64,000 nt of DNA from Candidatus Omnitrophica bacterium UBA6249 (GTDB taxonomy: Bacteria > Omnitrophota > Gorgyraeia > Gygaellales > Profunditerraquicolaceae). The stretch lies in the NCBI GenBank assembly GCA_002441305.1, contig DJVT01000009.1, forward strand, positions 178,766-242,765, read 5' to 3'. The notes under the pieces were generated by a model that was not told where the DNA came from, did not search any database, and saw only the letters and a program-made list of their open reading frames with translations. Numbering within the stretch: the stretch's first letter is position 1; every line of letters starts with the position of its first letter. This document shows, in pieces, positions 12,166 through 54,656 of the stretch. Made by a program: the position numbers and the translations under genes.

Positions 12166-13332
12166 ATGGCTATCGATTATAAAAAAGAATTAGAGAACGC
12201 GGCCAGGAACATGATTTTTGTGCATGATCCAGACCTTCTGATCAAGATGATGGTCCGGATGATGGTTAACAGGGCTAAAATTACCCACGCCAGTTTCTTT
12301 CTTCATGATAAGGCTAAAGAAAGCTATGCCCTTACTGTATCCAAAGGGCACTTGAAGAGCAAGATTCCATTGAGCCTTGTGCGTATCGATAAGGACGATG
12401 TTTTGATCCGTTTCTTCAAGTCCGGGATGAGCACTTCGCTGTTCGGCAGAGAAGCTCTAGTATTGAACGAGGCCAAGGCGGAGCTCAAGAATCCCAGCCT
12501 GAAAAAAGAGACCAAGCAAAAGCTTATCCATGTATTGTATCAGATGGAGCTTTTGGAGTCAGTGGCCTGCATACCGAGCTATTTCCGCGATGAATTGCTT
12601 GGCATACTGCTTTTGGGCAGGAAGCAAAATGGCAGGAAATTCCTGGATGAAGAGTTAGACTTTTTTATAGCCCTTAATTCGAATGTGTCCATGGCGGTGA
12701 GGAACGCGCAGCTTTTCAGGCAACTGGGGCTCGAACTTGAACGCAAGCACCAGTTGTTTGTGCGTACGACAATCGCGCTAGCTGCGGCTATCGAGGCCAA
12801 AGACCACTATACGCATGGCCATACTACCAGGGTTACCAGTTTGAGCCTGGAGATAGCCAGGGGCATTGCCAGGAAAAATAAACGGGATTTCGATTCCGGC
12901 TTCATGGAAAACCTGCATATTGCCAGCCTGTTACACGATATCGGCAAGATCGGGGTTCCGGAATACATCCTGAATAAAAGGGACGCTTTGACTGTCGGGG
13001 AACGCAACCGCATAAAGGAACATCCGATGATCGGGGTAAATATACTAAAGCCGATCAAGGAGCTCGAAGGTTCGATGATGGGGATTAAATGCCATCACGA
13101 ACGTTTTGACGGCAAGGGGTATCCCGATGGGTTAAAAGGGGAACAGATTCCCCTGATTGCCTCCATAATCTCCGTGGCGGATTCATTTGACGCCATGAAT
13201 TCTGACCGGCCCTACCGGCCGGCATTGCCTAAGGAAAAAGCGGTAAACGAAATCAGGAGCTTGAGCGGGCGCCAATTCTGCCCGCACATAGCGGATACTT
13301 TCCTGGAAATCTGCAAGGAAGGCAGAGTCTAA
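12166..13332 (+). CDS. GAF domain / HD-GYP domain protein (c-di-GMP phosphodiesterase family)
   Basis: 388 aa. The C-terminal half has HYTHGHTTRV, LLHDIGKIGVP and HHERFDGKGYPDGL. Confidence 0.85.
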   Translation: MAIDYKKELENAARNMIFVHDPDLLIKMMVRMMVNRAKITHASFFLHDKAKESYALTVSKGHLKSKIPLSLVRIDKDDVLIRFFKSGMSTSLFGREALVLNEAKAELKNPSLKKETKQKLIHVLYQMELLESVACIPSYFRDELLGILLLGRKQNGRKFLDEELDFFIALNSNVSMAVRNAQLFRQLGLELERKHQLFVRTTIALAAAIEAKDHYTHGHTTRVTSLSLEIARGIARKNKRDFDSGFMENLHIASLLHDIGKIGVPEYILNKRDALTVGERNRIKEHPMIGVNILKPIKELEGSMMGIKCHHERFDGKGYPDGLKGEQIPLIASIISVADSFDAMNSDRPYRPALPKEKAVNEIRSLSGRQFCPHIADTFLEICKEGRV

Positions 13333-15996: not shown

Positions 15997-16486
15997 CTAC
16001 CTTTGGCGTTTGCTGATTGCTCTCCCGCACGATTACGCGGTGATGGCCGTAGCCGCCCTCCCGGTCTCGGAATTAAGAGGGTCGATCCCGTTGGCGCTAT
16101 CGCTGGGGATGGGATTTGCCAGGGCATTTTGGCTCTCGGTCGCAGGCAACTGTCTGATCGTCGCTCCTGCGCTTTTTCTTTTGAAACCGGTTACCGCTTC
16201 CCTGAGGAGGTTCAGGTTTTGTTCCGGATTCTTTGATTGGGTATTTGAACGTACCAGAAGAAAAGCAGACATCATACAGCGCTATGAGGCATTGGGGCTT
16301 TTTTTATTCGTGGCCATACCCTTGCCCGTAACCGGGGCCTGGAGCGGGGTAATCGCGGCATCTCTGTTCAAGATACGTTTCCGTTACGCCTTCTTTTCGA
16401 TAATTGCGGGAATATTTTGTGCCGGGATTGTTGTCCTTTCCTTGTGCGCCCTTGGAATATCCGGCTGGAGGGCGGTGTCGGGATGA
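15989..16486 (+). CDS. small multidrug-export-like membrane protein (COG2426-like)
   Basis: 165 aa with 4-5 hydrophobic segments. PVSELRGSIPLALSLG is the motif I associate with this family. Confidence 0.55.
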   Translation: MLDYLWRLLIALPHDYAVMAVAALPVSELRGSIPLALSLGMGFARAFWLSVAGNCLIVAPALFLLKPVTASLRRFRFCSGFFDWVFERTRRKADIIQRYEALGLFLFVAIPLPVTGAWSGVIAASLFKIRFRYAFFSIIAGIFCAGIVVLSLCALGISGWRAVSG

Positions 16487-16986
16487 TCCATATTTATACG
16501 GGAAACGGGAAAGGTAAAACTACGGCGGCGATCGGCCTGGCCGTTAGGGCGGTGGGCGCCGGGCTGAAAGTCTACATGGCGCAGTTTATCAAGGGCCGCC
16601 CTTACAGCGAGCACCGTACTTTAAGCCGAATAAAGAACATAAAAGTAGAGCAGTTCGGCAGGGATTGCTTCATCAGGAAAGACCCCTGCAGCGAAGATAA
16701 GGTCTTGGCGGAAAAAGGGCTTGAGGCGGTTAGGAGGGCGGTCCGGGAAGGCAAATACCGAATGGTGATTATGGATGAGGTGAATGTCGCCCTGAAATTG
16801 AATTTATTCCGCCTGGAGGATCTCTTGCAGGTGGTTGCCTCAGTTCCCCGGAAGACCGAGCTGGTATTAACCGGGCGCTATGCCCCGGCAAAACTTATAA
16901 AATGCGCCGATTTGGTCAGCAGGATCGACGAGGTCAAACATTATTACAGGAAGGGGGTCAAGGCCAGAAAAGGCGTGGAGTTATGA
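16483..16986 (+). CDS. cobO: cob(I)yrinic acid a,c-diamide adenosyltransferase
   Basis: MIHIYTGNGKGKTTAAIGLAVRAVGAGLKVYMAQFIKG...MDEVN...VLTGR. ATGA overlap sets the start at 16483. Confidence 0.9.
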   Translation: MIHIYTGNGKGKTTAAIGLAVRAVGAGLKVYMAQFIKGRPYSEHRTLSRIKNIKVEQFGRDCFIRKDPCSEDKVLAEKGLEAVRRAVREGKYRMVIMDEVNVALKLNLFRLEDLLQVVASVPRKTELVLTGRYAPAKLIKCADLVSRIDEVKHYYRKGVKARKGVEL

Positions 16987-16999: not shown

Positions 17000-17027
17000 T
17001 TGACAAAATCACTCCGGATGGTAAATT
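17000..17027 (+). promoter_or_regulatory. promoter candidate for the riboswitch-led operon (TTGACA-N16-TGgTAAATT)
   Basis: TTGACA 17000-17005, then TG 17019-17020 plus TAAATT 17022-17027 (extended -10-like). It lies about 15 nt upstream of the aptamer P1. Confidence 0.4.
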
Positions 17028-17043
17028 AATATAATAATTAGAA

Positions 17044-17201
17044 ATACAGGATCAAGGGAAATCCGTAGGCAAGAAATTGTGAATCGGATGCGGTCCCGCC
17101 GCTGTAACCGGGGACGAAAACCATCAGACCACTGTCTGTTTTTTTAGGATGGGAAGGGATGGTCAGTAGTTTGATCCGGGAGCCAGAAGACCTGCCTGTA
17201 T
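17044..17201 (+). ncRNA. cobalamin (AdoCbl-type) riboswitch aptamer 1
   Basis: P1 pairs ATACAGG 17044-17050 with CCTGTAT 17195-17201. Conserved elements are AAGGGAA 17054-17060, GGTCCCGCCGCTGTAACCGGGG, the B12 box AGACCACTG 17126-17134, GGGAAGG, and GAGCCAGAAGACCTGCC. Confidence 0.85.
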
Positions 17202-17249
17202 ATGCGGAAAATGATTTCCTCGCGGAAGGATTAAGTAAATCAGGGTGCT

Positions 17250-17280
17250 ATCCTTAGGCTTTTTGCTTAAGGATTTTTTT
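17250..17280 (+). terminator. intrinsic terminator (riboswitch 1 expression platform)
   Basis: ATCCTTAGGC 17250-17259 pairs with GCTTAAGGAT 17265-17274 (10 bp, one G-U) around a TTTTT loop. A T6 run follows at 17275-17280. Confidence 0.8.
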
Positions 17281-17297
17281 GTTTCACGGGGGCGTAG

Positions 17298-18101
17298 ATG
17301 GAGACAGGGGCAGTGGGTTTGAGGCGCAGGCTCAAGCTTCCTTTCAGGGTCGGTACCACTTCGTACGTATGGCCGGAAGACATTATCTCAAACGTGCGCA
17401 GGCTGAAAGGGCTTATAGACGACGTTGAACTCGTATTGTTCGAGTCGGAGCAATCCGGCAATATCCCAGCAGAAGAAGAGATGGATGAGCTGAGGAATAT
17501 AGGCGCAGGGTGCGACATGAGTTATACTGTCCATCTGCCTTTGGATTTGAATTTGGGCAGCAGTTTGGCGGAAGAGAGGGCTAAATCAATTTCTTGCATA
17601 AGGTCTATTTCCCAGCAGGTCTGTGCGCTTGCCCCTAAGGCCTACATTCTGCATCTTAACTTGCCGGAAAGCTCTCCGCGGGATATCCCGGCATGGCAGG
17701 AATATGCCGGTATTTCGCTTAAAGAAATAGCCGCAGGTAATATAATCGCTCCTGTTAAGGTAGCGGTTGAGAATTTAAGCTATCCTTTCGATTATATCGG
17801 CGGGCAAGTTCTGGAGAGCGGTTTTTCCGTATGCGCCGATATAGGGCATCTTTTGGTTATGGGGCTGGATCCGCTGGCGCACCTGGAAAAGTATTTTGAG
17901 AGCATTGCGGTAATCCATCTTCACGGGGTGAACGGGGCAAAAGACCATGTTTCCCTGAAATACCTCAATCAGGGGATGTTAAAGGATATAGCGGATTTTC
18001 TTATGCGCAGAGGGTATGCCGGAGTATTGACTTTGGAGGTGTTCGCGCAGAGCGATTTCGAAGAGTCCATGGAGATACTATGGGAAAGCTTATATTTATA
18101 A
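17298..18101 (+). CDS. cbiR: xylose-isomerase-like/AP-endonuclease-2 TIM-barrel protein; candidate cobamide-remodelling phosphodiesterase CbiR
   Basis: 267 aa. It is the first gene after the riboswitch and overlaps cobU by 22 nt. FRVGTTSYVWPEDIISNVRRL...DDVELVLFES and later HLHG/HL motifs fit the TIM-barrel superfamily. The CbiR assignment rests on context plus published knowledge. Confidence 0.6.
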   Translation: METGAVGLRRRLKLPFRVGTTSYVWPEDIISNVRRLKGLIDDVELVLFESEQSGNIPAEEEMDELRNIGAGCDMSYTVHLPLDLNLGSSLAEERAKSISCIRSISQQVCALAPKAYILHLNLPESSPRDIPAWQEYAGISLKEIAAGNIIAPVKVAVENLSYPFDYIGGQVLESGFSVCADIGHLLVMGLDPLAHLEKYFESIAVIHLHGVNGAKDHVSLKYLNQGMLKDIADFLMRRGYAGVLTLEVFAQSDFEESMEILWESLYL

Positions 18102-18610
18102 CCGGGGGGTCACGCAGCGGAAAGAGCTCCCTTGCCGTAAAGATTGCCTCGAAGATAAAGAAGAAAAAAGTGTTTATCGCAACTTGCATTCCGCAAGACA
18201 GGGAGATGAAGGAACGCGTAAGGCTGCATCGTCTAAACAGGCCGTCTTCCTGGAAGACTATAGAGCCTTCACCGGACCTGCTTTGCCTGTTAAGCCGGGA
18301 AACGAAAGAAAACTGCGTGTTGATTATCGACTGCCTTACCTTGTTTGTCTCCGGGCTGCTCATGCGCAAGAGGAAAGAGGAGGCAATTAAATCAGAGGTA
18401 AAAAAGGTAGCGGAGACGATCAAGAAGGGTAAGGCGACGGCGGTCATTGTTTCTAACGAGGTTGGCTGCGGACTGGTGCCGGAAAATAGGCTTGGCAGGT
18501 TATTCAGGGATATCGCCGGTTCATGCAACCAGGATATCGCCGGGTACGCCGATGAGGTTTTTTACATGGTTGCCGGTATTCCCATAAAGATAAAAGGAGG
18601 GCCCAGATGA
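18080..18610 (+). CDS. cobU: adenosylcobinamide kinase / adenosylcobinamide-phosphate guanylyltransferase
   Basis: MGKLIFITGGSRSGKSSLA P-loop; 176 aa; SNEVGCGLVPEN motif. Confidence 0.9.
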   Translation: MGKLIFITGGSRSGKSSLAVKIASKIKKKKVFIATCIPQDREMKERVRLHRLNRPSSWKTIEPSPDLLCLLSRETKENCVLIIDCLTLFVSGLLMRKRKEEAIKSEVKKVAETIKKGKATAVIVSNEVGCGLVPENRLGRLFRDIAGSCNQDIAGYADEVFYMVAGIPIKIKGGPR

Positions 18611-19671
18611 ATTGGCGGCAAGAACTGCTTCCTTCTATCCTGCCTTTGGATGAGGGCGCCATGCTTGAGGCCCAAAGAAGGCTGGATAGCCTGACTAAGC
18701 CCAAACATAGCCTTGGCAGGTTGGAGGATTTTGCAAAGAAGACCGCAGGGATTACCGGAAATCCCAGGCCCTGCATAAAAAACAAGGTTATATTCACTAT
18801 GGCCGGAGACCATGGAGTGGCAAGCGAAGGGGTGAGTCTTTTTCCGCAGGAGGTAACCGGGCAGATGATTTATAATTTCCTGGAAGGCGGTGCCGGGGTC
18901 AATGTGCTTGCCAGGCATACTGGCGCGCGGGTGGTTATCGCCGATATTGGATGCATCGAGAACATAAAGACCGGGAACGTGAATTTTATAGATAAGAAGA
19001 TAGCGCGCGGTACCGGGAATATCGCCGAGGGCCCGGCGATGAGCGAAGAGCAGGCAATAGCTTCTTTGCGCGCAGGCATGGGAATATTCGGAGGCGAATA
19101 TGCCAGTGGGAAGATAGATATAGCCGGATTGGGAGAAATGGGCATAGCAAATACTACTTCGGCAAGCGCGATAACCTGCTGTATTACCGGGGCAAAAGCG
19201 GAAGACGTGACCGGAAGAGGCACCGGCATAGATGATCAAAGGCTGAAATTGAAGACCGATGCAGTCAAGAAAGCGGTCAGGGTGAACAACCCTGACCCGC
19301 ATGATCCTCTCGATGTCTTGAAGAAATTAGGGGGATTCGAGATAGGGGCTTTGGCGGGGATAATCATTGCCGGGGCGGCAAAAAGGGTCCCTGTGGTGAT
19401 CGATGGGTTTATCACGGCGAGCGCAGCGCTGATTGCCACGCAGATATCACCCTTGTCCCGGGATTATCTTTTTGCCAGCCATGATTCCGTGGAAAAAGGG
19501 CATGCCGTAGCATTGAAATGGATGGGTCTGGAACCCATGTTCGATTTACAGATGCGCCTGGGAGAGGGGACCGGGGCTTGTATCGGGATCAGCCTTATAG
19601 AGGCAGGAACGAGGGTATTGAACGAAATGGCGACTTTTGACGGGGCGGGCATCTCCCGGGAGAAAGAATGA
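18607..19671 (+). CDS. cobT: nicotinate-nucleotide--dimethylbenzimidazole phosphoribosyltransferase
   Basis: 354 aa with LTKPKHSLGRLEDFA, GEMGIANTT and MRLGEGTGA. ATGA overlap with cobU. Confidence 0.9.
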   Translation: MNWRQELLPSILPLDEGAMLEAQRRLDSLTKPKHSLGRLEDFAKKTAGITGNPRPCIKNKVIFTMAGDHGVASEGVSLFPQEVTGQMIYNFLEGGAGVNVLARHTGARVVIADIGCIENIKTGNVNFIDKKIARGTGNIAEGPAMSEEQAIASLRAGMGIFGGEYASGKIDIAGLGEMGIANTTSASAITCCITGAKAEDVTGRGTGIDDQRLKLKTDAVKKAVRVNNPDPHDPLDVLKKLGGFEIGALAGIIIAGAAKRVPVVIDGFITASAALIATQISPLSRDYLFASHDSVEKGHAVALKWMGLEPMFDLQMRLGEGTGACIGISLIEAGTRVLNEMATFDGAGISREKE

Positions 19672-20414
19672 TTATTCTGAAAAGGATTCTTTCTGCGGTA
19701 ACTTTTCTTACCGTGCTTCCTTTTTCTGGCAAAGGGGAAGCAGATCCGCGTGAGCTCGGGAAAGCGATGGGGTTTTTCCCTTTAGCCGGCTTGTTTATAG
19801 GCCTTATCCTGGCTTGCGCGTACGCGCTTTCGTCCTTGTTTTTTTCTCCCCTGTTTGTTTCTGTGCTGGTAATAGTTTTGTGGGCCTTTCTCTCCGGCTT
19901 GCTGCATCTGGAAGGTTTTGTCGATGCCGCCGACGGTTTCAGCGCCGGCTGCGGAAGGGAGAAGACGCTTGAAATAATGAAAGACCACCATTGCGGGGCA
20001 AAGGGTGTTATTCTCCTTGTCCTGCTTATCGTCTCGAAGATAGCCGTTTTTAATGAGACGCCGGACTCTTTGCGTATTACCGCCCTGCTTTTAGCCCCGG
20101 TTGCGGGAAGGTGGGCGATGGTATGCGCTGCCTGTTTGTGCCCTTACGCCAGGAAGACAGGGGGGTTTGGCAGGGTATTTGTGGAGAACTGCGGTAAAAG
20201 GGAGCTTTTTTTATCGAGCTTTATATTCGTTTTCACAGCCTCATTCCTGCTCCGTCTTGAGGTTTTTATCTGGATTATGCCTTTTTTATTCTTTGTATTT
20301 ATTTCTTTATTCTGGTTGAACAGGAGAATCGGGGGGGTTACCGGGGATATCTTAGGGGCTCTGAATGAAGTAAGCGAGCTGGTCTGCCTTTCCATTTTCC
20401 TGCTTATGAGATGA
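19668..20414 (+). CDS. cobS: adenosylcobinamide-GDP ribazoletransferase (cobalamin synthase)
   Basis: 248 aa polytopic membrane protein with LTVLPF, HLEGFVDAADG and GGVTGDILGA motifs. Confidence 0.9.
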   Translation: MIILKRILSAVTFLTVLPFSGKGEADPRELGKAMGFFPLAGLFIGLILACAYALSSLFFSPLFVSVLVIVLWAFLSGLLHLEGFVDAADGFSAGCGREKTLEIMKDHHCGAKGVILLVLLIVSKIAVFNETPDSLRITALLLAPVAGRWAMVCAACLCPYARKTGGFGRVFVENCGKRELFLSSFIFVFTASFLLRLEVFIWIMPFLFFVFISLFWLNRRIGGVTGDILGALNEVSELVCLSIFLLMR

Positions 20415-21502
20415 AGTTTATTCCGGGGGCCTTAGTGCACGGAGGGGATCTTAAATGGGCTTCCCGGGCCTTCGGGATCAGGGAAAAAGGTATCGTCGAT
20501 TTCAGCTCAAATGTGAATGTCCGCCCTGTTCCCGCGGCGGTAGTTAAAGCCGTAGGTAAAAGCTTGAACGGGATAGCGAGATACCCGGATGCAAGATGTT
20601 CAAAGTTACTGGGCGTATTAAGCAGGCGCCTGGGTGTAGAGGAAGGGCATATTGCCGCGGGGAACGGTTCGGCGGAGATTATCCACCGGCTGGTCAGGGC
20701 TTTTCGTATAAAGTCGGCTGTTGTGATTATGCCAGCTTTTGGAGAATATGGTAAGGCGCTTTTGGAAGCAGGAGCCAGGGTTAGGCCATTTTTCACCAGG
20801 GAACGAAACCGGTTTGTGCCGGATATAAAAGAGATTGCAGAGAAAATTCCATCATGTACAGATGCTTTGTTTTTCTGCAACCCCAACAATCCTACCGGAG
20901 TATTAACTCCGAAAGAGGACATTGAGTCTCTTGTCGCTGTTCTGAGGCGCAAGAAGACGATATTAGTCCTGGATGAAGCTTTTATTGACCTCGAGGAGGA
21001 GGAAAGCCTGGTTAAGAGCGCCCCGGGCGCTGGCAATCTCCTGGTACTGCGTTCGATGACCAAGTTTTTTGGCCTGGCGGGGTTGAGGTTGGGTTATGCC
21101 GTAGGCAGCCTGGCGATGATAAAAAGCCTGCGTGATTTTGGCCAGCCATGGCCGGTGAATGTATTCGCGCAGGCAGCCGGAGAGGCGGTCTTGAAGGAAA
21201 GAAGTTTTTGTGTTTTGAGCAGAAGAGAAATTATCGAAGAACGCGATTTCCTGTATGAGAGGCTCATTATGGCAAGAGGCGTAAGGCCTTTTCCTTCCCG
21301 GGCGAATTTTATAATGTTGAAGATAGAAAACGGAATTTCTTCCGGCATGCTGCAAAGACTCTTGGCAAAAAGAGGCCTGTTGATAAGGGACTGCGCGGAT
21401 TTTCCCGGATTAAGCGATAAATATTGCAGAATAGCGGTAAGGGGGCGTGCCGATAATTTACGCCTGCTCCGGGAATTGGATATTATTTTAAGGCAGGGTT
21501 AA
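20411..21502 (+). CDS. cobD: L-threonine-O-3-phosphate decarboxylase (class I/II aminotransferase fold)
   Basis: 363 aa with HGGDL...IVDFSSNVN, NPNNPTG and SMTKFFGLAGLRLGY. Confidence 0.85.
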   Translation: MKFIPGALVHGGDLKWASRAFGIREKGIVDFSSNVNVRPVPAAVVKAVGKSLNGIARYPDARCSKLLGVLSRRLGVEEGHIAAGNGSAEIIHRLVRAFRIKSAVVIMPAFGEYGKALLEAGARVRPFFTRERNRFVPDIKEIAEKIPSCTDALFFCNPNNPTGVLTPKEDIESLVAVLRRKKTILVLDEAFIDLEEEESLVKSAPGAGNLLVLRSMTKFFGLAGLRLGYAVGSLAMIKSLRDFGQPWPVNVFAQAAGEAVLKERSFCVLSRREIIEERDFLYERLIMARGVRPFPSRANFIMLKIENGISSGMLQRLLAKRGLLIRDCADFPGLSDKYCRIAVRGRADNLRLLRELDIILRQG

Positions 21503-21503: not shown

Positions 21504-22997
21504 ATGGTTATCCAGGTATGCGGCACCGGTTCGGGAGTCGGTAAAAGCGTAATCGTTTCTGCTTTATGCCGTATTTTTCTGCAGGATGGCTTACGCCCTT
21601 GTCCTTTCAAGGCGCAGAACATGGCTTTGAATTCATTCGTTACCGCCGATGGTAAAGAAATGGGCCGGGCTCAGGCGGTACAGGCTCAGGCAGCAGGACT
21701 TGTGCCTTGCGCGGATATGAATCCCATATTGCTCAAGCCGATGTCGGACAGAAGGGCACAGGTAGTGGTAAGCGGTATTCCCGCGCGGAACATGTCGGTT
21801 TATGAGTACGTGCGCTATAAGAAGACAGCGGAAAGTATAGTTTTGTCCTCTTTCCGGCACCTGTCCGGGCAGTACGATACGATGGTTATCGAAGGGGCCG
21901 GATCTCCGGCCGAGATCAACCTGAGCTCTCATGATATTGTGAATATACGCATGGCAATGCGCGTTCATTCACCGGTTATCCTGGTGGGGGATATTGATAA
22001 AGGGGGAGTTTTTGCCTGGCTTTCCGGCACGCTTGATTTGCTAAAACCGGAAGAGAAAAAAACGGTCAAGGGTTTTATTATCAATAAGTTCAGGGGGGAT
22101 AAAAGGCTGCTTAAGCCGGGGTTAGATTTCCTTGAGAGAAAAACCGGGGTTAGAGTATTGGGCGTAATTCCGTATTTTAAGGATATAAAGATTCCCGAGG
22201 AAGACTCCGTGCCGCTTGAAAAACAGGCGTATGCGGAAAGAGGCGGCGGTGCAGTGGACATAGCGGTAATTAACCTTCCGCATATATCGAACTTTACCGA
22301 TTTTGACCCATTGGAGAATGAACCGGACGTCAGTCTGCGTTATGTGGGGTGCGGAGATGATCTTGGTAGGCCGGATGTAATCATTATCCCCGGAAGCAAG
22401 AGTACGATCTCTGATTTGGATTATCTAAAAAAGACCGGGATGGCGGGTAGGATAGCGGAAGCGTTTGAAAGGAACCGGGATCTTGTGCTCGTCGGCGTCT
22501 GCGGGGGATACCAGATGCTGGGGAGGCGGATATACGACCGTAAGTCGGTGGAGTCAAAAAGGAGAATGAGCGGAGGGCTGGGGTTTTTGCCCGTAGTTAC
22601 ATATTTTGACGGTAATAAGACGCTTGCGCAGGTATCTGGGGAGGAGGTTTCTACCGGATTAAAGGTGCGTGGTTATGAGATACACCACGGCAAGAGTGTT
22701 ATTTCAGGAAAAAAGGCGGCTCCTGTTTTTAAGGTTGGGGGATGCAGGGGAGAGGGAATTCGTTTTGACGGCGCAGGCCTGGAAGGAGGCAGGGTCTGGG
22801 GTACTTATATCCACGGTCTTTTTGACTCCGGAGGATTCCGCAGGGATTTTCTTAACCGGGTCAGGGCGAGGATGGGTTTTTCTTCGTTAAAACCGGTGTC
22901 GCAAGATGCAGAAAATGAGTTTGATAAGCTCGCTTTTCTGGTAAGAAGGAATATCAAAATGGATTTGTTATACAGTATTATGGAGGCGGGATTGTGA
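21504..22997 (+). CDS. cobQ: cobyric acid synthase
   Basis: 497 aa. CGTGSGVGKS, FKAQNMALNS and EGAGSPAEINL, with a C-terminal GATase domain (GVCGGYQMLG, YEIHHG). Confidence 0.9.
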   Translation: MVIQVCGTGSGVGKSVIVSALCRIFLQDGLRPCPFKAQNMALNSFVTADGKEMGRAQAVQAQAAGLVPCADMNPILLKPMSDRRAQVVVSGIPARNMSVYEYVRYKKTAESIVLSSFRHLSGQYDTMVIEGAGSPAEINLSSHDIVNIRMAMRVHSPVILVGDIDKGGVFAWLSGTLDLLKPEEKKTVKGFIINKFRGDKRLLKPGLDFLERKTGVRVLGVIPYFKDIKIPEEDSVPLEKQAYAERGGGAVDIAVINLPHISNFTDFDPLENEPDVSLRYVGCGDDLGRPDVIIIPGSKSTISDLDYLKKTGMAGRIAEAFERNRDLVLVGVCGGYQMLGRRIYDRKSVESKRRMSGGLGFLPVVTYFDGNKTLAQVSGEEVSTGLKVRGYEIHHGKSVISGKKAAPVFKVGGCRGEGIRFDGAGLEGGRVWGTYIHGLFDSGGFRRDFLNRVRARMGFSSLKPVSQDAENEFDKLAFLVRRNIKMDLLYSIMEAGL

Positions 22998-23944
22998 ACT
23001 ACGCGATGTTTGTCATACCATGTGCTTACCTGTTGGATCTTGCGGCGGGCGATCCCCAGTTCCGCTGGCACCCGGTCAGGGTAATGGGCAGGTTCGTGGA
23101 GGTTCTCGAGCGCGTATTGAACAGGGATGGGTACAATAGGAGGCTGACCGGTGCGATACTGGTTTTTCTGACAGGTTCAGCCGCGGTTTTCTTCACATGG
23201 GCTGTCCTGGACCTAAGTTTGTCCATACATCCGGCGTTGTTTTTTACCGTCTCAGTGCTGATGATTTATTTCTCGGTTTCCACGAAGGCCCTTGCGGATG
23301 AGGCCGGGAAAATTGGCAGATTCCTGAGAGAAGGTGATGTAATTTCAGCCAGAAAGAACCTTTCCCTGATCGTGGGGAGGGATACCGCGGCCATGGATGA
23401 AGAGCAGGTAATCCGGGCGAGCGTTGAGACCGTGGCGGAGAGCACCATGGATGGGATAGTTGCTCCTTTATTTTATGCGTTTATAGGAGGCCCCGTCCTG
23501 GCCTGGTTTTACAAATCGGTAAACACAATGGATTCCATGGTCGGGCATAAAAACAAACGTTATGCCGAATTCGGTTGGGCCGCGGCAAGGCTTGACGGCC
23601 TGCTTAATTTTGCACCTTCCAAGATAACGGCTTTTTTGGTAAATATGGCCGTATTTTTGTATGGGAAGGATTGGCGTAGTTCTATCAGATGGACGGCAAG
23701 GTACCTTTTTAAAGGCCCGTCTTTCAACAGCGATACTGCGGAGGCGCCTATGTCGGGTGGTTTGGGCATCAGGCTTGGGGGGAGGAATTTTTACGGAGGG
23801 CTTGCCGTGGATAAGCCTTTTTTAGGCGATGGCTTGGAAACCCTGCATGTAAAGCATATCGGCCAGAGCATTGCGGTTTGTTATCTTGTTTCATTATTGA
23901 TGCTGGTTACGGGCGGGATTTTCCAGATGAGGAATTTTTCATGA
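22994..23944 (+). CDS. cbiB: adenosylcobinamide-phosphate synthase
   Basis: 316 aa membrane protein with GDPQFRWHPVRVMG, IVGRDT and ESTMDGIVAPLFY. GTG start overlaps the cobQ stop. Confidence 0.9.
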   Translation: MNYAMFVIPCAYLLDLAAGDPQFRWHPVRVMGRFVEVLERVLNRDGYNRRLTGAILVFLTGSAAVFFTWAVLDLSLSIHPALFFTVSVLMIYFSVSTKALADEAGKIGRFLREGDVISARKNLSLIVGRDTAAMDEEQVIRASVETVAESTMDGIVAPLFYAFIGGPVLAWFYKSVNTMDSMVGHKNKRYAEFGWAAARLDGLLNFAPSKITAFLVNMAVFLYGKDWRSSIRWTARYLFKGPSFNSDTAEAPMSGGLGIRLGGRNFYGGLAVDKPFLGDGLETLHVKHIGQSIAVCYLVSLLMLVTGGIFQMRNFS

Positions 23945-24822
23945 GGGGAACATTCCGGAAAATAGGAAAAATGGCGCATAGGGGTATTTTATTTGCAATA
24001 TCGGCCCTGGCCGTATTTTGTTTTTCCGTTAACTGTTTTGCCCAAGAAGAGGCGAAGGCGGGGGTTGGCGTAAACAAAATAGTTTCCCTGGGGCCCTCTA
24101 TTACCGAAGAGCTTTATCTTTTAGGCGTGCAGGATAAGCTTTTTGGGGTTACTACTTATTGCCAGAAGCCTCTTCCGGCCGCGGAGAAGGATAAGGTGGG
24201 CAGTACGGTAGAAGTCAATGTAGAGAAAATTGTTTCTATCAGACCTGATTTGGTGTTAGCTACATCCATGGTAAATCCCAAGAGCCTGGAAAAACTGAAG
24301 GAGCTTGGGATTAAGGTTGTGGTTTTCGGAGCCGCGGAAGACTTCGGCCATATGCGCGCGCAGTTCCTGGAGTTGGCGGATTATCTCGGGGAACGGGGGA
24401 AAGCCGAGAAGATACTGGATGAGGTAGGCAAGCGGGTAGAAAAGGTTAAGGATTCGGTGAAGGGGCTGCCCAGGCCGAGGGTGATAGTCCAGGCGGGCGC
24501 GCGGCCTCTCTGGGTGGCCAGCGGAGATTCCTTTATCAACGATATAATCGAGATGTCCGGAGGAGAAAATATCGGGCCGGAAGGGAAAAACGGTATTTTC
24601 AGCAGGGAACGGGTCCTGGAACTCGACCCCGATGTAATTATTATCACTACCATGGGAATGGTCGGGGAGGAAGAGGAATTCCTGTGGAGGAAATATCCGA
24701 GTATTTCCGCGGTAAGGAATAACCGTATTTATATAGTGGATAGTTATAAATTCTGCTCCCCGACACCGGTAAGTTTTGCAGAGGCACTGGAAGAGATGGC
24801 GTTTATACTGCATAAAAAATAA
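23941..24822 (+). CDS. btuF: periplasmic cobalamin/siderophore-type ABC substrate-binding protein
   Basis: Signal-like N-terminus (ILFAISALAVFCFSVNCFA). IVSLGPSITEELYLLG and PDLVLA are typical of class III SBPs. ATGA overlap with cbiB. The alternative start at 23971 is not excluded. Confidence 0.8.
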   Translation: MRGTFRKIGKMAHRGILFAISALAVFCFSVNCFAQEEAKAGVGVNKIVSLGPSITEELYLLGVQDKLFGVTTYCQKPLPAAEKDKVGSTVEVNVEKIVSIRPDLVLATSMVNPKSLEKLKELGIKVVVFGAAEDFGHMRAQFLELADYLGERGKAEKILDEVGKRVEKVKDSVKGLPRPRVIVQAGARPLWVASGDSFINDIIEMSGGENIGPEGKNGIFSRERVLELDPDVIIITTMGMVGEEEEFLWRKYPSISAVRNNRIYIVDSYKFCSPTPVSFAEALEEMAFILHKK

Positions 24823-24823
24823 G

Positions 24824-25825
24824 ATGGACAGGAAGATAAACAGGCTGGTTTTAGTATTATCGGTTTTAGCGGCAATGCTTTTTTGCGCGGCGGTCTTTTC
24901 GCTTTGCGTGGGTTCTGCGGGAATCCCTTTAAAAAGGGTGTTCCAGTTATTTTTCGAAGGCAGAGGCAGTACGGAATACAATATTGTTTTTGACATACGT
25001 TTCCCGCGTATCCTGCTCGGGTTTGCCGTAGGCGGAGCCCTGGCCCTGGCAGGCGTTATTCTCCAGGGGGTCTTCCGTAACCCGCTGGTTGAGCCGTATA
25101 CTTTGGGTGTTTCCGGCGGGGCGGCGTTAGGCGCGTCTTTGAATATTGTATTCAAACTGTACAGGAGCAGCGTGTTGACTCTTCCCTTGTTCGGTTTTAT
25201 CGGGGCGTTCTTTATTATAATCGTACTTTACCTGCTCAATATGAGGAAGGGAACGATAAAACTGCAGTGGCTGCTTCTTAACGGGGTGATGATAAGCTTC
25301 ATATCCTCTTCATTGATTATGCTGATTATGTCTTTATCCCGCGCGGAGGATATGCACGGGATAATCTTCTGGATAATGGGGTCTTTGGACGAACCTAATT
25401 GGTTTATTATCAAGGTTACCGTGGTCATGTCGATAGCGCTTCTTGCCGTATCGTATTTATTTTGTCTGGATCTTAACGCTTTTTCCCTGGGGGAAGAGGA
25501 GGCGATGCATTTGGGGGTACGCACGGAAAAAAGCAAGAGGATGCTTTTTATCGCCGCTTCATTGCTTACGGGTCTGAGTGTCGCCGTGGCGGGAATGATC
25601 GGTTTCGTGGGGCTGGTGGTCCCGCATTTTGTAAAGATGCTTACTGGAGGCGATCATAGGGTATTGATCCCCGCTTCTTTTCTTTCGGGAGGGATATTCC
25701 TGATTTTCTGCGATACCCTGGCAAGAGTGGTAATTGCCCCGATGGAGCTTCCGGTCGGCGTGATTACCGGGATACTGGGGGGAAGTTTTTTTGTTTATGC
25801 CCTGGCCAAAAGAAGAAGCGTATGA
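24824..25825 (+). CDS. btuC: FecCD-family ABC permease (B12 import)
   Basis: About 333 aa from ATG 24824. Contains RFPRILLGFAVGGALALAG, EPYTLGVSGGA and GFVGLVVPH motifs. Confidence 0.85.
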   Translation: MDRKINRLVLVLSVLAAMLFCAAVFSLCVGSAGIPLKRVFQLFFEGRGSTEYNIVFDIRFPRILLGFAVGGALALAGVILQGVFRNPLVEPYTLGVSGGAALGASLNIVFKLYRSSVLTLPLFGFIGAFFIIIVLYLLNMRKGTIKLQWLLLNGVMISFISSSLIMLIMSLSRAEDMHGIIFWIMGSLDEPNWFIIKVTVVMSIALLAVSYLFCLDLNAFSLGEEEAMHLGVRTEKSKRMLFIAASLLTGLSVAVAGMIGFVGLVVPHFVKMLTGGDHRVLIPASFLSGGIFLIFCDTLARVVIAPMELPVGVITGILGGSFFVYALAKRRSV

Positions 25826-25835
25826 TGAGGCAAGA

Positions 25836-26660
25836 ATGTTAAAAGTAGAGAACCTGATTTGCGGTTATGAGAAGAAGGCTATACTTTCCGATGTTTCTTT
25901 CCAGGTGGACAAGGGCGAATTCGTGGGGATCATTGGTCCGAACGGTTCGGGTAAGACTACTCTTTTGCGCGCTCTGTCAAGGATAATTGAGCCTTCCGGG
26001 GGGATGATCAGTTTGTACGGAAAGGATATGCGCCAGATTCACCCAAAGCTGCTGGCCAGGAGTGTTTCCGTAGTTTCGCAGAATATATCCCCGGAGAACT
26101 TTACGGTGGAGGAATTTGTTTCCCTGGGGAGGCTGCCTTATTACGGGGCTTTCCAGTTTTTCGGTACGAAAAAAGATTATCAGGCGGTGCATGCGGCCAT
26201 GGAATTAACCGGGGTGGAGGCGCTGGGAGAGCGTTTTCTGGAGAAGATGAGCGGCGGGGAAAAACAGCTTGTATTTATTGCGCGGGCGTTGGCCCAGGAG
26301 CCGGAGCTTATCCTTCTTGATGAGCCGACCGCGCATCTGGATATCGCCCATCAGGTGAATATTATGGATTTGATCAGAAAGCTGAATAGGGACTTCGGGC
26401 TTACTGTGGTAATGGTGCTACATGATTTGAACTTGGCAGGAGAGTATTGCCATAAGCTCCTTCTGGTAAACAACGGCTCGATACATAAAATAGGGCAGCC
26501 TAGGGAGATACTGAACTACCGGGATATCGAAGAGGTTTACGGCACAAGGGTGGTCGTTGTGGAGAACCCCGTTTCAGGCAAGCCTTATGTAGTACTGGTT
26601 CCCGGAGAGTGCAGAGAAGAAGAACAGGCGCAGGGGCATAAAAAAGGAGGCGGGAATTGA
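25836..26660 (+). CDS. btuD: ABC transporter ATP-binding protein (B12 import)
   Basis: Walker A GPNGSGKTT, signature MSGGEKQ, Walker B LILLDEPTAHLD. Start is at ATG 25836 (MLKVENL). Confidence 0.85.
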   Translation: MLKVENLICGYEKKAILSDVSFQVDKGEFVGIIGPNGSGKTTLLRALSRIIEPSGGMISLYGKDMRQIHPKLLARSVSVVSQNISPENFTVEEFVSLGRLPYYGAFQFFGTKKDYQAVHAAMELTGVEALGERFLEKMSGGEKQLVFIARALAQEPELILLDEPTAHLDIAHQVNIMDLIRKLNRDFGLTVVMVLHDLNLAGEYCHKLLLVNNGSIHKIGQPREILNYRDIEEVYGTRVVVVENPVSGKPYVVLVPGECREEEQAQGHKKGGGN

Positions 26661-27115
26661 TAAGAAGAAGTCAAGTTATAGCGGTTTTAATTTTTTGTGT
26701 TATATCGGCGGTTGCTGCAGCATTTTATGCGGCGGGAATCCGGCATGCGGATAAAGGTGGAAAAAGATATGAGGTAAGCGTGGAGATAGATTATGGCGGC
26801 AGGCTTCCTTTTCGGAAAGCGGAGGTTGTTTTGCCTGAAGGCGGCAGCGTTCTGACGGCCCTACAGTCCGTAGCCGACGTAGGGACGCACCGTGCGGGAG
26901 GGTATGTTTTTGTCGTCTCCGTAGACGGAGTGGAGGGCGTGCGTGGGGAAAATGCCTGGTATTATACGATAGACGGGGAGAACCCGGAGGAATTGGCGTA
27001 TTCGAAGGTTATCGCAGCGCCGGCGCATATAAAATGGTCTTATCAAAAAGATGTATGTTCGGGAAGAGTTGACAATGAAAATGAAGTATCAGCCGGGAAG
27101 GAGGAAGGTAAATAA
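26657..27115 (+). CDS. membrane-anchored DUF4430-like (transcobalamin beta-domain-like) protein
   Basis: 152 aa with one N-terminal TM helix, then SVLTALQSVA...VVSVDGVEG...NAWYYTIDGENPE...IKWSY. TTG start overlaps the btuD stop, with an AAGGAGG SD 6 nt upstream. Confidence 0.6.
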   Translation: MIRRSQVIAVLIFCVISAVAAAFYAAGIRHADKGGKRYEVSVEIDYGGRLPFRKAEVVLPEGGSVLTALQSVADVGTHRAGGYVFVVSVDGVEGVRGENAWYYTIDGENPEELAYSKVIAAPAHIKWSYQKDVCSGRVDNENEVSAGKEEGK

Positions 27116-27163
27116 TAAAAGGCACTTAGAGAGGCAAGAAGCGTATTATAAACATTATTATTT

Positions 27164-27292
27164 CCGGATAAGCAAAGGAAGTGAAGGTGCATTGTTTCTT
27201 TAGCAAGGATTCCTTCCGCTGCCCCGCAACGGTAATGAAAAACGGCATTTGATACTGCTGGTTTTTACGAGCCCGGACGATTGTTTATCCAG
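27164..27292 (+). ncRNA. cobalamin riboswitch aptamer 2
   Basis: P1 candidate pairs GGATAA 27166-27171 with TTATCC 27285-27290. Also present are AAAGGAAGTGAAGGTGCA, GCTGCCCCGCAACGGTAA 27218-27235 (strong match to the conserved core), a B12-box variant GATACTGCTGG, and GAGCCCGGACGATTG. Confidence 0.7.
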
Positions 27293-27341
27293 GGAATCCC
27301 GCTTAAATATTCTGCGGGCAGTATTCTCGAGGGAGGAGAAG

Positions 27342-29288
27342 ATGGCAAGAAAGATTCAGGTTTTTCTAATAGTTATGTTTTTTTGTATGATGGGTTTATC
27401 TCGGGCGGATGAGCCTGCGCAGGGAGGTAGCGCGGCCCAGGGTGAAGAAACCGTGGCTGTTTCCGGAGGGGAAGCCCAGTATGACCTGGGAAAAGTGATA
27501 GTTTCTGCGACCAAGACGGAAACTTACCAGGCAGAGATCGGGAGCTCCACTACTGTAATTACCGCTGATGATATAGAGAAATCCGGAAAGCGTACAGTTG
27601 AAGAGGTCTTGCGTAATGTCCCTGGACTTACCGTGATGCAGACTGGGGCTATAGGAGGAGCGGTTTCCGTATTTATGCGCGGGGCTAATTCCGGGCAGAC
27701 CCTGGTGATGATCGATGGAGTTGAGGTGAACGATCCGATGGCCACCGATCGCTCGTTTGATTTTGCCAATCTTGTTACAGATAATATCGAGAGGATAGAG
27801 ATTGTGCGCGGGCCGCAGTCAACGCTTTACGGTTCGGACGCAATGGCCGGCGTAATCAATATTATTACCAAAAAAGGAACCGGCAGGCCAAAATTCGAAG
27901 GTTCTTTTGAAGGAGGCTCGCATAGTACCTTCAACGAGAGCCTGGGGTTCAGCGGTACGGCTATGGAGAAGTTGGATTATTCGTTTTCAGTGGCACGCCT
28001 GGATTCGGAAGGTATATCTACAATATCCGGCACGGAAGACGATCCCTACCATAACCTTTCGCTTTCTTCGAAGGTGGGGTATAAAGTTTTCGATAACGCG
28101 GAGTTGAACCTGGTGGTGCATTATACGGATGCGAGAAAATCAATCGATGATTCCGACACTTCTACCTATGCGCCCATCGATATGCCCAACTATACATCCT
28201 GGTCGAAGGATTTGGCAAGCAAGGTTTCCTTTGATCAATCCATCAACTCTTGGTGGACACATAACCTGTCTTTTTCTTACCATGATATGCGCCGAAAAGA
28301 CAGGAAAGATTGGGATCCTCATAACCAAACCGTGATCGGTGATTGGTATAAGGGGAACAACAAGAAGGTGGAGTGGCAGCATACTCTTTCTCCGGTAAAA
28401 TGGAATACTGTTACCGCAGGTTTTGAATACGAGAAAGAAAGCGGTTCATCTCTTTACAGCGTTACTCCTGATCCCTACTTTTCTTCAAGCAAACAGGATA
28501 GGAAAAGTATTGATAACTGTGGATATTATTTTCAGGATCAGCTCAAAATCTGGGATAGCCTTTTTATCACTCCCGGATTGAGGATTGATGATCATGAGAT
28601 ATTCGGAACGGAGACTACCTATAAAGTATCAGCTGCCTACCTTATTAGGCAAACCGGTACTCGTCTTAAGGCCAACTGGGGCACGGGTTTTAAAGCTCCT
28701 TCCCTGTTTCAGCTGTATTCGACATATGGTTCGCCGGATTTAAGCCCCGAGAAAAACAAAAGTTATGATATCGGGTTTGAACAGAGTTTGTTTTCCGACT
28801 GTTTATCGTTTGACCTGACGTATTTTCATAACAAATATAGCAATCTCGTAGATTATAATTATTCTACAAGTAAGTATTATAACGTCGGGAAAGCGAAGAC
28901 CAAAGGTGTCGAATTAGGGGCAACATTAAAGCCTTTGGATAATTTGACCTTGAGCGGTAATTTCACTTATACTAAGACTGAAGATAAAGAAACAGGGCGG
29001 GAGCTTCAGAGGCGTCCGGAAAGACAGTTCAATTTTGATGTGAACTGGGCTTTTCTGCCTAAGGCAAACCTGAATTTTGGGGCAAATTATGTAGGCAGCC
29101 GTAAAGATTCGGGCTATATCACGGATAAGGCGTATACTGTTTTCCGTCTCGCCGCTTTATACAATGTTACGGAAAATCTCCAGGTTTTTGGCAGGATCGA
29201 AAACCTTTTCGACAAGAAATACCAGGAGGTTTATAGTTATGAAACTTTGGGCCGTTCATTCTATGCCGGCTTGAAGGCAAAGTTCTAA
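27342..29288 (+). CDS. btuB: TonB-dependent outer-membrane receptor (BtuB-like)
   Basis: Signal peptide MARKIQVFLIVMFFCMMGLSRA, TonB box/plug (VIVSATKTE, IERIEIVRGPQSTLYGSDAMAGVINIITK), and a C-terminal ...SFYAGLKAKF beta-barrel terminus. The real start at 27342 follows GGGAGGAG. Confidence 0.9.
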   Translation: MARKIQVFLIVMFFCMMGLSRADEPAQGGSAAQGEETVAVSGGEAQYDLGKVIVSATKTETYQAEIGSSTTVITADDIEKSGKRTVEEVLRNVPGLTVMQTGAIGGAVSVFMRGANSGQTLVMIDGVEVNDPMATDRSFDFANLVTDNIERIEIVRGPQSTLYGSDAMAGVINIITKKGTGRPKFEGSFEGGSHSTFNESLGFSGTAMEKLDYSFSVARLDSEGISTISGTEDDPYHNLSLSSKVGYKVFDNAELNLVVHYTDARKSIDDSDTSTYAPIDMPNYTSWSKDLASKVSFDQSINSWWTHNLSFSYHDMRRKDRKDWDPHNQTVIGDWYKGNNKKVEWQHTLSPVKWNTVTAGFEYEKESGSSLYSVTPDPYFSSSKQDRKSIDNCGYYFQDQLKIWDSLFITPGLRIDDHEIFGTETTYKVSAAYLIRQTGTRLKANWGTGFKAPSLFQLYSTYGSPDLSPEKNKSYDIGFEQSLFSDCLSFDLTYFHNKYSNLVDYNYSTSKYYNVGKAKTKGVELGATLKPLDNLTLSGNFTYTKTEDKETGRELQRRPERQFNFDVNWAFLPKANLNFGANYVGSRKDSGYITDKAYTVFRLAALYNVTENLQVFGRIENLFDKKYQEVYSYETLGRSFYAGLKAKF

Positions 29289-29349: not shown

Positions 29350-29943
29350 ATGTTCAACTTATTTCTAAAGGGCGGACCGCTGATGTGGCCGATATTGCTC
29401 TGTTCCCTGGTATCGGTAACGATTGTCCTGGAGCGGTATTATTATTTCTACCGCCTGCGTGGCAGGATCCCTAATATTTGCCCGAGGGTAAAACTGCTTT
29501 TAAAAGAAGGCAGGGAAGATGAGGCGGTAAGATTGTGCGAGCAGGACGGCGGCCCGGTAGGGCGTATCCTGGCGATAAGCGCGCATATCCGCCATAAGCC
29601 GGCAGAAGAGCGGGAAAAATTAATCTCCCGGGCAGGCTCTAAGATTGTCCGCCAGATGGAGCAATACCTGCGCGCCCTTGCGGTAATCGTGAATACCGCT
29701 ACTCTTTTGGGGCTGTTGGGTACGGTTACCGGGATGATCAAGGCCTTTATGAAGATCCAGGAACTGGGGGGGAGAGTGGATGCTTCGGTGCTGGCGGGGG
29801 GCATCTGGGAAGCGTTGATCACTACTGCCGCAGGGCTATTCGTTGCCATACCTACCATGCTTTTTTACCATTATTTCGAAAGTAAGGTGGATAATACTGC
29901 GGATTCGATGAAAGAAGCGGCGATGGAATTTCTGGAGGGATGA
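29350..29943 (+). CDS. exbB: MotA/TolQ/ExbB proton-channel protein
   Basis: 197 aa with GGPLMWPILLCS and LLGLLGTVTGMIKAF. Confidence 0.9.
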   Translation: MFNLFLKGGPLMWPILLCSLVSVTIVLERYYYFYRLRGRIPNICPRVKLLLKEGREDEAVRLCEQDGGPVGRILAISAHIRHKPAEEREKLISRAGSKIVRQMEQYLRALAVIVNTATLLGLLGTVTGMIKAFMKIQELGGRVDASVLAGGIWEALITTAAGLFVAIPTMLFYHYFESKVDNTADSMKEAAMEFLEG

Positions 29944-30356
29944 TGGAATTCGAAGCAAGGAAGAAAATAAGTACGGAGATGAATATTGCTCCTTTGATCG
30001 ACGTAATTTTCCTGCTTATTCTGTTTTTTATGCTTACCGCCAACTTCGTTATTCCCCCGGGGATAAAACTCGATTTGCCCAGCGTGCTTTCCGCAAAGCC
30101 CCAAGAGGAGGAAAACACGGTTGTTTCGGTAACCCGGGACGGTGGGCTGTTCCTGAATGATAAAGGTATTTCCGGGCAGGAGCTTCCCGGAGCATTGAAG
30201 AGAGAACTGGAAGGCGCGAAAAACAAGACGGTAGTGATCCGGGCGGATGAAAATGTCAATTTCGGACTTGCGGTGGATGTTCTGGATATGGCCAAACAGG
30301 CTTCAGCAGAGGGCGTGGTCATCTCGACCACTAAAAAGGAAAATGCCGGGAAATAA
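29940..30356 (+). CDS. exbD: ExbD/TolR biopolymer transport protein
   Basis: 138 aa with MNIAPLIDVIFLLILFFM. ATGA overlap with exbB. Confidence 0.9.
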   Translation: MMEFEARKKISTEMNIAPLIDVIFLLILFFMLTANFVIPPGIKLDLPSVLSAKPQEEENTVVSVTRDGGLFLNDKGISGQELPGALKRELEGAKNKTVVIRADENVNFGLAVDVLDMAKQASAEGVVISTTKKENAGK

Positions 30357-40926: not shown

Positions 40927-41494
40927 GCCGGTTTTCCCGAAAGGGGTTTTAGGGAGCGTCGGGATAATCCAACTTAGGGATAAAGTTTCGAACAGGCGCC
41001 GGGTTTTCGAACAGGCGGCCGGGCTCGCCCGGTCACTGGCGAAAAGCAGGACGTTTTTTATCGTAAATGATTACGCGGATATAGCCCTGCTCTCCGGGGC
41101 GGACGGCGTGCATCTGGGCCAGGGGGACCTCCCCTTGAAAGAGGCAAGGAAGATGATGGGGAAGGGAAAAATAATTGGGGTTTCCTGCCATAACCTTTCC
41201 CAGGCCGTCAAGGCGCAGGAGGACGGAGCGGATTACATAGGCATAGGCCCGGTGTACAGATCCGCTACCAAGCCGGAATGCGAAGCCATAGGGATCGGGG
41301 AATTGCGCCGCCTGAGAAACAAGATAAGCATCCCCTATTTTGCGATAGGCAACATCAACCGGGAAAATCTGGGAGAGGTGATTAATGCCGGATGCGGCAG
41401 GGCGGCGGTATGCCGCGCAATACTCGAAGCTGGCCGTCCGGATGCGGCTGCAAAGAATTTATTTTCCATACTGAACCAGGCAGTTATAAAATGA
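40871..41494 (+). CDS. thiE: thiamine-phosphate synthase
   Basis: About 207 aa from ATG 40871 (MKSKGLLLRKSLLYLILD...). Contains IQLRDK, VNDYADIALLSGADGVHLGQGD, IGVSCH and YFAIGNI. The longer 40703 ORF start is probably read-through. Confidence 0.85.
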   Translation: MKSKGLLLRKSLLYLILDRPVFPKGVLGSVGIIQLRDKVSNRRRVFEQAAGLARSLAKSRTFFIVNDYADIALLSGADGVHLGQGDLPLKEARKMMGKGKIIGVSCHNLSQAVKAQEDGADYIGIGPVYRSATKPECEAIGIGELRRLRNKISIPYFAIGNINRENLGEVINAGCGRAAVCRAILEAGRPDAAAKNLFSILNQAVIK

Positions 41495-54632: not shown

Positions 54633-54656
54633 ATATCAACAATAACGGAGGGTTTG

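Follow-up and report, generated by a model that had tools for sequence, protein, structure and literature searches.

A 64,000-nucleotide stretch of contig DJVT01000009.1 from Candidatus Omnitrophica bacterium UBA6249, referred to here in its full length as the window, carries an open reading frame (ORF) at positions 17298 to 18101 that, judged from its sequence, very probably encodes a metallo-phosphodiesterase of the CbiR family and stands first in a co-oriented run of 11 genes that follows a Cobalamin riboswitch and a hairpin resembling a terminator. CbiR was defined in Akkermansia muciniphila (Amuc_1679; Mok et al. 2020, mBio, PMC7733943), whose enzyme hydrolyses the phosphoribosyl bond of adenosylcobalamin and six other cobamides to release adenosylcobinamide-phosphate (AdoCbi-P) and an alpha-riboside, and for which replacement of the lower ligand has been shown with E. 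coli as host; an earlier note on this DNA, made from the letters alone, had ascribed the same chemistry to the family, in agreement with that publication. The features at the centre of the argument are as follows:

17031..17213, + strand: Cobalamin riboswitch aptamer (RF00174), its B12 box, GAGCCAGAAGACCUGCC, intact; Rfam 82.7 bits against a gathering threshold of 31.5, E=7e-19, full model
17250..17284, + strand: terminator-like hairpin with a 10-bp stem and a 5-nt loop, then a T-run, TTTTTTTGTTT; putative expression platform
17298..18101, + strand: cbiR, predicted cobamide-remodelling phosphodiesterase family, ATG start, 267 aa; assigned by curated hidden Markov model (HMM), fold and homologue alignment
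18080..18610, + strand: cobU, adenosylcobinamide kinase / cobinamide-phosphate (Cbi-P) guanylyltransferase; PF02283 E=4e-57, NF004469 188.5 bits against 161

The position of the gene is as the earlier note had described it, a 267-residue ORF directly following the riboswitch and overlapping cobU by 22 nt: the ORF list gives the same coordinates, the 3' end of the riboswitch lies 84 nt before the ATG, and cbiR and cobU share positions 18080-18101. Gene callers applied to 5 public contigs independently arrived at the identical 267-aa product and the identical overlap with cobU, and a GGGGG stretch occurs a few bases 5' of the cbiR ATG.

Assignment to the family is carried by NF041277, the NCBIfam equivalog model named "cobamide remodeling phosphodiesterase CbiR", against which the ORF product scores 252.1 bits over model positions 1-247 of 249, the curated cut-off being 105 bits. 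Ten diverse homologues, including those of Flexilinea and Smithella, reach 237-288 bits with this model and so bracket the window protein. The sole further NCBIfam match at E<=0.01 is to IolE (myo-inosose-2 dehydratase), a model with a cut-off of 290 bits that gives 15.5 here; at that threshold the product matches neither a sugar-isomerase/epimerase model nor the nfo model. The only Pfam family found is PF01261 (AP_endonuc_2 / xylose isomerase-like TIM barrel; residues 41-260, E=2.2e-13, 50.9 bits against 31.1), which bears out the fold proposed in the earlier note. These results bear directly on the possibility that the ORF is a generic xylose-isomerase-like sugar-phosphate isomerase or epimerase that adjoins cobamide genes by chance. 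Pfam, showing PF01261 alone, would permit this, and several homologues among the matches listed (the best 120 of 2682 in a protein homologue search) are labelled "sugar phosphate isomerase/epimerase" by JGI; the NCBIfam result, in which IolE is the one match other than CbiR, counts against it, as do further observations on structure, metal ligands and gene context given below, and we regard it as very unlikely.

The exact protein sequence is already held in public collections. Its 90% cluster comprises the 267-aa MDD3345722.1 / MFA4988468.1 and MDD5500928.1, all from Candidatus Omnitrophota bacterium and all carrying the CbiR name in GenBank, and MDD3345722.1 / MFA4988468.1 have 260/267 residues (97%) in common with the window protein. 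The suggestion that the gene is a CbiR ortholog or relative is thus upheld by the model score, by a nearly identical protein so named, and by the placement and gene context described below. Since family and naming are both public, the identification is correct but ordinary: annotation already places the window gene in this family, whose description dates from 2020, and the finding is as such already known. Omnitrophica are absent from Table S1 of Mok et al. (PMC7733943), a paper that admitted homologues at a BLAST E < 1e-14 to A. muciniphila CbiR and placed the family in 22 phyla, with 80% of homologues adjoining cobamide genes and transport genes adjacent in 25%. The Flexilinea flocculi TC1 homologue (GAP39404.1), listed in that table at 34% identity and E=5e-43 to the A. 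muciniphila enzyme, shares 39% identity (E=6e-60) with the window protein.

Related loci come from a scan of GTDB species genomes that gave at least 555 genome loci, of which the best 80 are considered here; Flexilinea flocculi TC1 and Smithella sp. AS4AglBPMA_11 (loci L051 and L064) occur both in this set and in the published table. In a neighbour-joining (NJ) tree, which is distance-based, carries no bootstrap values and includes five outgroup sequences only, the 81 CbiR-type sequences form a single monophyletic group; Escherichia coli Nfo, XylA and SgbU, the Methanocaldococcus jannaschii protein MJ1311, and a second TIM barrel encoded in the window all fall outside. Set against sugar isomerases and endonuclease IV, the window protein accordingly lies inside the CbiR set, apart from Nfo, XylA and SgbU. 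Within that set it groups with loci L001-L004, of which L002-L004 are titled Omnitrophota and L001 Planctomycetales. The last of these (CAZNGC010000012.1, titled "uncultured Planctomycetales") is the nearest species-representative homologue, at 58% identity and with the order btuR-riboswitch-cbiR-cobU-cobT; because the next four nearest homologues are all from Omnitrophota, this bin may carry a wrong taxonomic label.

The second TIM barrel was considered as a further CbiR and rejected:

32012-32926, + strand: second PF01261 TIM barrel, not CbiR; PF01261, E=3e-18

It scores 20.6 bits on NF041277 against the cut-off of 105, and 17 bits on an HMM built from the 81 CbiR sequences, on which the window CbiR scores 324. 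No homologue of it occurs in any of the 80 cbiR loci, and the genes downstream of it (DUF1844, aroQ, prolidase, efp, accBC) are housekeeping genes. The earlier note had proposed this protein as a specificity control, a role that suits it well, for it is a genuine PF01261 protein that fails the CbiR model and so serves as a negative control. Among solved structures it, too, comes nearest to MJ1311, by a weak match (E=0.004).

The structural model of the cbiR product (AlphaFold2, 22-sequence alignment) is of high predicted quality (mean predicted local distance difference test score 90.3, predicted template-modelling score 0.89) and consists of eight beta/alpha repeats forming a TIM barrel, in accord with the Pfam assignment. 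No solved CbiR structure was found in the PDB by sequence, profile or fold search. The top Foldseek match in the PDB is MJ1311 (3WQO, "D-tagatose 3-epimerase-like protein"), with a template-modelling (TM) score of 0.79 and 22% identity, followed at TM 0.71-0.76 by ketose (tagatose, psicose) 3-epimerases, UlaE and endonuclease IV. That tagatose and psicose 3-epimerases and UlaE stand among the leading matches is what structure offers to an isomerase assignment; the identities to the matched epimerase-type structures, 13-22%, indicate likeness at the level of the fold only. MJ1311, the closest solved structure, shares with CbiR all ten of the His/Asp/Glu positions considered here, but it lies outside the CbiR clade of the NJ tree and has no known cobamide function or context. 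The family profile finds it in the PDB over its full length at E=1.5e-9, and finds endonuclease IV chains at E=0.03 to 1.1.

When the window protein was aligned with its 80 homologues, nine residues proved invariant in 81/81 sequences (H79, H119, E158, D181, H184, H207, H209, H217 and E247) and a tenth, D216, was kept in 80/81. The window protein shares with A. muciniphila CbiR the NF041277 assignment and the PF01261 superfamily, with conserved His/Asp/Glu ligands; among the residues mutated in the A. muciniphila enzyme is D228 (PMC7733943, Fig. 6C). E. coli Nfo has H, H, E, D, H, H, D, H and E at positions 69, 109, 145, 179, 182, 216, 229, 231 and 261, as checked in its sequence; these nine positions we take to be the metal ligands of the trinuclear site of endonuclease IV. 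Alignment of the CbiR family with Nfo by hhalign, relied on for the ligand mapping because a MAFFT alignment misplaced several ligands, pairs seven of them exactly (H119/H109, E158/E145, D181/D179, H184/H182, H207/H216, H217/H231 and E247/E261) and brings the other two close, H79/H69 being offset by 3 residues and D216/D229 by 1; the alignment as a whole is weak (probability 48%, E=1.8e-4). From this correspondence CbiR appears to retain a phosphodiesterase metal site like that of endonuclease IV, which would be consistent with phosphodiester chemistry. The protein has extra His/Asp ligands of this type (H79, H119, H184, D216 and H217), most of which the aligned E. coli SgbU epimerase lacks, keeping only a His at the H79 position, and this speaks against an isomerase or epimerase.

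The same resemblance raises the question of whether the ORF might encode a DNA-repair endonuclease of the endonuclease IV type, acting at apurinic/apyrimidinic sites. Endonuclease IV (E. coli Nfo; 1QTW, 8RLY) is a TIM barrel of the same superfamily that hydrolyses phosphodiester bonds, and the seven exact ligand pairs together with the TM scores of 0.71-0.76 speak for the idea. Its substrate is DNA, whereas the window protein, about 13% identical to it, has no nfo model match, its family profile recovers the solved endonuclease IV chains only at the E-values given above, Nfo stands apart from the CbiR set in the NJ tree, and the operon context is wholly cobamide-related; we give a repair function next to no credence. 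A biochemical difference is also on record, A. muciniphila CbiR being active solely under anaerobic conditions with dithiothreitol, inhibited by ethylenediaminetetraacetic acid, and oxygen-sensitive (PMC7733943).

The CbiR assignment is further reflected in the genes that surround the ORF. The 11-gene run, cbiR-cobU-cobT-cobS-cobD-cobQ-cbiB-btuF-btuC-btuD-DUF4430, is co-oriented and largely overlapping, and would presumably be co-transcribed in its entirety. An adenosyltransferase gene precedes the riboswitch, and would therefore be outside its control. The components beyond cbiR and cobU are:

16483..16986, + strand: cobO/btuR, ATP:corrinoid adenosyltransferase; PF02572 E=1e-60, NF004637 188.6 bits against a cut-off of 185
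18607..19671, + strand: cobT, lower-ligand phosphoribosyltransferase; PF02277 E=1e-129, TIGR03160 421 bits against 319
19668..20414, + strand: cobS, cobamide-5'-phosphate synthase; PF02654 E=1e-52, TIGR00317 141 bits against 110
20411..21502, + strand: cobD, threonine-phosphate decarboxylase; TIGR01140 309.4 bits against 290.55
21504..22997, + strand: cobQ/cbiP, cobyric acid synthase; NF001989 612 bits against 273
22994..23944, + strand: cbiB, adenosylcobinamide-phosphate synthase; TIGR00380 225.9 bits against 165.9
23878..24822, + strand: btuF-like periplasmic corrinoid-binding protein; PF01497 E=2e-33, BtuF model 104 bits, under its cut-off of 234
24776..25825, + strand: btuC-like ABC permease (FecCD family); PF01032 E=8e-93
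25791..26660, + strand: btuD-like ABC ATPase; PF00005 E=2e-32
26657..27115, + strand: DUF4430 protein, 152 aa, last gene of the run; PF14478 E=1.2e-6, no NCBIfam match

The context used to define CbiR in the original work, adjacency to and co-orientation with cobU, cobT or cobS (PMC7733943), is found here in full, cbiR overlapping cobU and being followed by cobT, cobS, cobD, cobQ and cbiB. A. muciniphila CbiR likewise has cobU, cobT, cobS, cobD, cobQ and cbiB as neighbours, with transport genes close by; the window gene differs in coming from Candidatus Omnitrophota, another phylum-level lineage, and in standing first, directly behind a Cobalamin riboswitch and with the 22-nt overlap with cobU. 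The linkage extends well beyond this organism. Among the related loci, 65/80 contain cobU, cobT or cobS; cobU lies immediately 3' of cbiR, in the same orientation, in 56/74 loci with enough flank, drawn from many phyla; and one Omnitrophota locus (L005) has a gene order equal to that of the window as far as btuD. This conservation of the cobU linkage across phyla, and the location of the gene behind a riboswitch, are not what chance proximity of a sugar isomerase would lead one to expect. The tight coupling of the two genes, seen in the overlap and in the 56/74 loci, fits an enzyme whose Cbi-P output is the substrate of the CobU guanylyltransferase.

Another enzyme with a comparable role is CbiZ, the adenosylcobinamide amidohydrolase, which also removes an unwanted lower ligand so that the nucleotide loop can be rebuilt, and whose gene is often beside transport genes. 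CbiZ is unrelated in fold and sequence, and cuts an amide bond to give cobyric acid, whereas CbiR leaves Cbi-P (PMC7733943); after CbiZ the aminopropanol linker therefore needs rebuilding. A CbiZ-type amidohydrolase domain is absent from the ORF in the Pfam and NCBIfam scans.

A further feature of the locus is the regulatory region that precedes cbiR, which begins with a promoter candidate immediately upstream of the aptamer:

17000..17027, + strand: sigma-70-like promoter candidate, TTGACA-16 nt-TAAATT with TG; 10/12 consensus matches

The terminator-like hairpin appears in the minimum-free-energy fold of 17205-17300. A riboswitch terminating before cbiR at sufficient cobamide would place an additional control on CbiR, the direction of control at the window locus presumably being that of repression by cobamide. 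Similar arrangements recur: Rfam-confirmed riboswitches lie immediately 5' of cbiR in L001, L003, L005, L009 (Hydrogenedentes) and L052 (Kiritimatiellia), and farther upstream within the same-strand cluster in L002, L008, L012, L015, L035, L060 and L073, and an nhmmer profile seeded with the confirmed aptamers suggested a riboswitch in about 27 of the 80 loci. Three independent Logan assemblies (L083-L085) end 207 nt upstream of cbiR, inside the aptamer (near window position 17091), which could reflect either variation between strains or an assembly break where the riboswitch core is conserved or repeated.

How cells keep CbiR from re-hydrolysing the finished cofactor was stated to be unclear by Mok et al. 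(2020), who proposed sequestration or coupling to uptake against such futile re-hydrolysis; riboswitches occur in the main text of that paper in the reference list only, and riboswitch control is not discussed (PMC7733943). The presence of btuFCD in the same run as cbiR fits the proposed coupling to uptake. We tentatively suggest, as a possibility toward which we remain somewhat sceptical, that the placement of cbiR first behind a terminator-type riboswitch, in the window and in L001, L003, L005, L009 and L052, provides a promiscuous CbiR with its missing off-switch, that the riboswitch, through its selectivity for ligands, and not the selectivity of the enzyme sets which cobamides are remodelled, and that the 22-nt overlap couples Cbi-P production to guanylylation. 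Riboswitch control of cbiR would be the sole element of the locus that goes beyond the literature examined, and mildly new.

Several observations weigh against parts of this account. The promoter candidate is not significant by itself, since 3 such sites were found where 2.3 were expected; it and the terminator are matches to a consensus and no more, and the fold of the hairpin region is not better than that of shuffled sequences (z = -1.5). The ligand set is not specific to CbiR, for MJ1311 has 10/10 of the positions and the second window TIM barrel keeps 9/10, including the HxHG...DH motif; the comparison of metal-binding residues put forward in the earlier note therefore holds in so far as the set is conserved and seven ligands pair with Nfo, and fails as a means of separating, alone, CbiR from its relatives. 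Equivalence of substrate and bond to the A. muciniphila enzyme is assumed, the catalytic activity and substrate range ascribed to the window protein being extrapolated from that sole characterised member of the family; apart from Bilophila homologues at 40-41%, most of those listed in Table S1 show 25-36% identity to A. muciniphila CbiR (PMC7733943). Finally, a cobC phosphatase was not found within the window, where the sole histidine phosphatase, a His_Phos_1 protein at 54654-55406, was considered as CobC and rejected because it is GpmA (440 bits, with 62.8 against 162.9 on the CobC model).

The lack of cobC in operon and window lends some substance to a different role, in which a CbiR-family hydrolase would take no part in lower-ligand exchange and would either recycle damaged or unusable corrinoids generally to Cbi-P or stand in for a CobC-type phosphatase acting on cobamide-5'-phosphate or alpha-ribazole-phosphate. 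The cobD, cobQ and cbiB genes of the operon, whose role is the salvage of corrinoid precursors from earlier stages and not remodelling alone, are compatible with it, and an endonuclease IV-like ligand set would suit several phosphoester hydrolyses. The sole characterised family member is nonetheless a phosphodiesterase that releases Cbi-P and alpha-ribazole (PMC7733943), a gene for CobC may lie in another part of the 474-kb contig, and the coupling of cbiR to cobU suits production of Cbi-P for CobU. We consider this alternative improbable, and retain the assignment of the ORF as a cobamide-remodelling CbiR.

The remodelling steps that the locus would support, drawn from characterised CbiR and established nucleotide-loop biochemistry, can be set out in order. 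Imported corrinoids would be adenosylated by BtuR/CobO; CbiR would then hydrolyse the phosphoribosyl bond of the nucleotide loop, yielding AdoCbi-P together with the unwanted base as its alpha-riboside; CobU, acting as guanylyltransferase, would convert AdoCbi-P to AdoCbi-GDP; and CobS would condense Cbi-GDP with a preferred base activated by CobT, a phosphatase encoded outside the window completing the cofactor. When a cobamide recognised by the riboswitch is abundant, the aptamer would favour the terminator, and the salvage and remodelling operon, including cbiR, would be off. No lower-ligand biosynthesis gene lies in the window, because the ThiC homologue there (41392-42780, + strand) is a genuine ThiC and not BzaB, a candidacy rejected on scores of 624 bits against 410 for ThiC and 521 against 700 for BzaB.

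Several reading-frame and annotation details of the locus merit note. The listed cobO/btuR ORF begins at 16417, with the domain match at the ATG at 16483; public contigs call a protein of 167 aa. The true start of the btuF-like gene is more likely an internal ATG near 23941, the listed TTG at 23878 probably being too early. DUF4430 is known as a C-terminal domain in transcobalamin-type B12 binders (PMC4350170), and for this reason the last protein of the run may be a small bacterial cobamide-binding protein. Beyond it lies a second group of genes that suggests corrinoid uptake across the outer membrane:

27153..27302, + strand: second Cobalamin riboswitch-like element, before the btuB-like receptor, exbB, exbD and two TonB-C genes; 27.8 bits against a gathering threshold of 31.5, E=0.0039
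27249-29288, + strand: ORF of a btuB-like TonB-dependent receptor; TIGR01779 328 bits, under its cut-off of 599.7
29350-29943, + strand: exbB
29940-30356, + strand: exbD
30247-31026, + strand: tonB
31068-31769, + strand: second TonB-C protein

A second riboswitch had been implied in the earlier note; a Cobalamin match does occur at 27153-27302, and its score remains below threshold. The true start of the btuB-like receptor probably lies after 27302, as the listed TTG at 27249 overlaps the riboswitch-like element. Foreign origin of the island was also considered, and no sign of it was seen, the G+C content being uniform across the window at 0.46-0.52.

Elsewhere in the window, the genuine thiC at 41392-42780 (+) is followed by a tRNA at 42796-42866, and no TPP riboswitch was detected upstream of it at E<=0.1, which is unusual for a bacterial thiC. 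Three HD-domain phosphohydrolases are encoded on the + strand (12166-13332, 46178-47329 and 47289-48362), the last two adjacent and overlapping; two of the trio belong to the HD_5 (HD-GYP-like) type, and the other has HD_assoc (dGTPase-like).

The locus introduces no new kind of enzyme or system, and its use lies in the metabolic reconstruction of an uncultured lineage. It indicates that a genome of Omnitrophota type carries a complete module for corrinoid uptake, salvage and remodelling, and that the organism is probably a cobamide scavenger able to tailor the lower ligand. For the family, direct control of cbiR by a riboswitch recurs in several phyla and gives a testable explanation of how the futile cycle might be avoided, a question that the paper in which CbiR was discovered did not answer.

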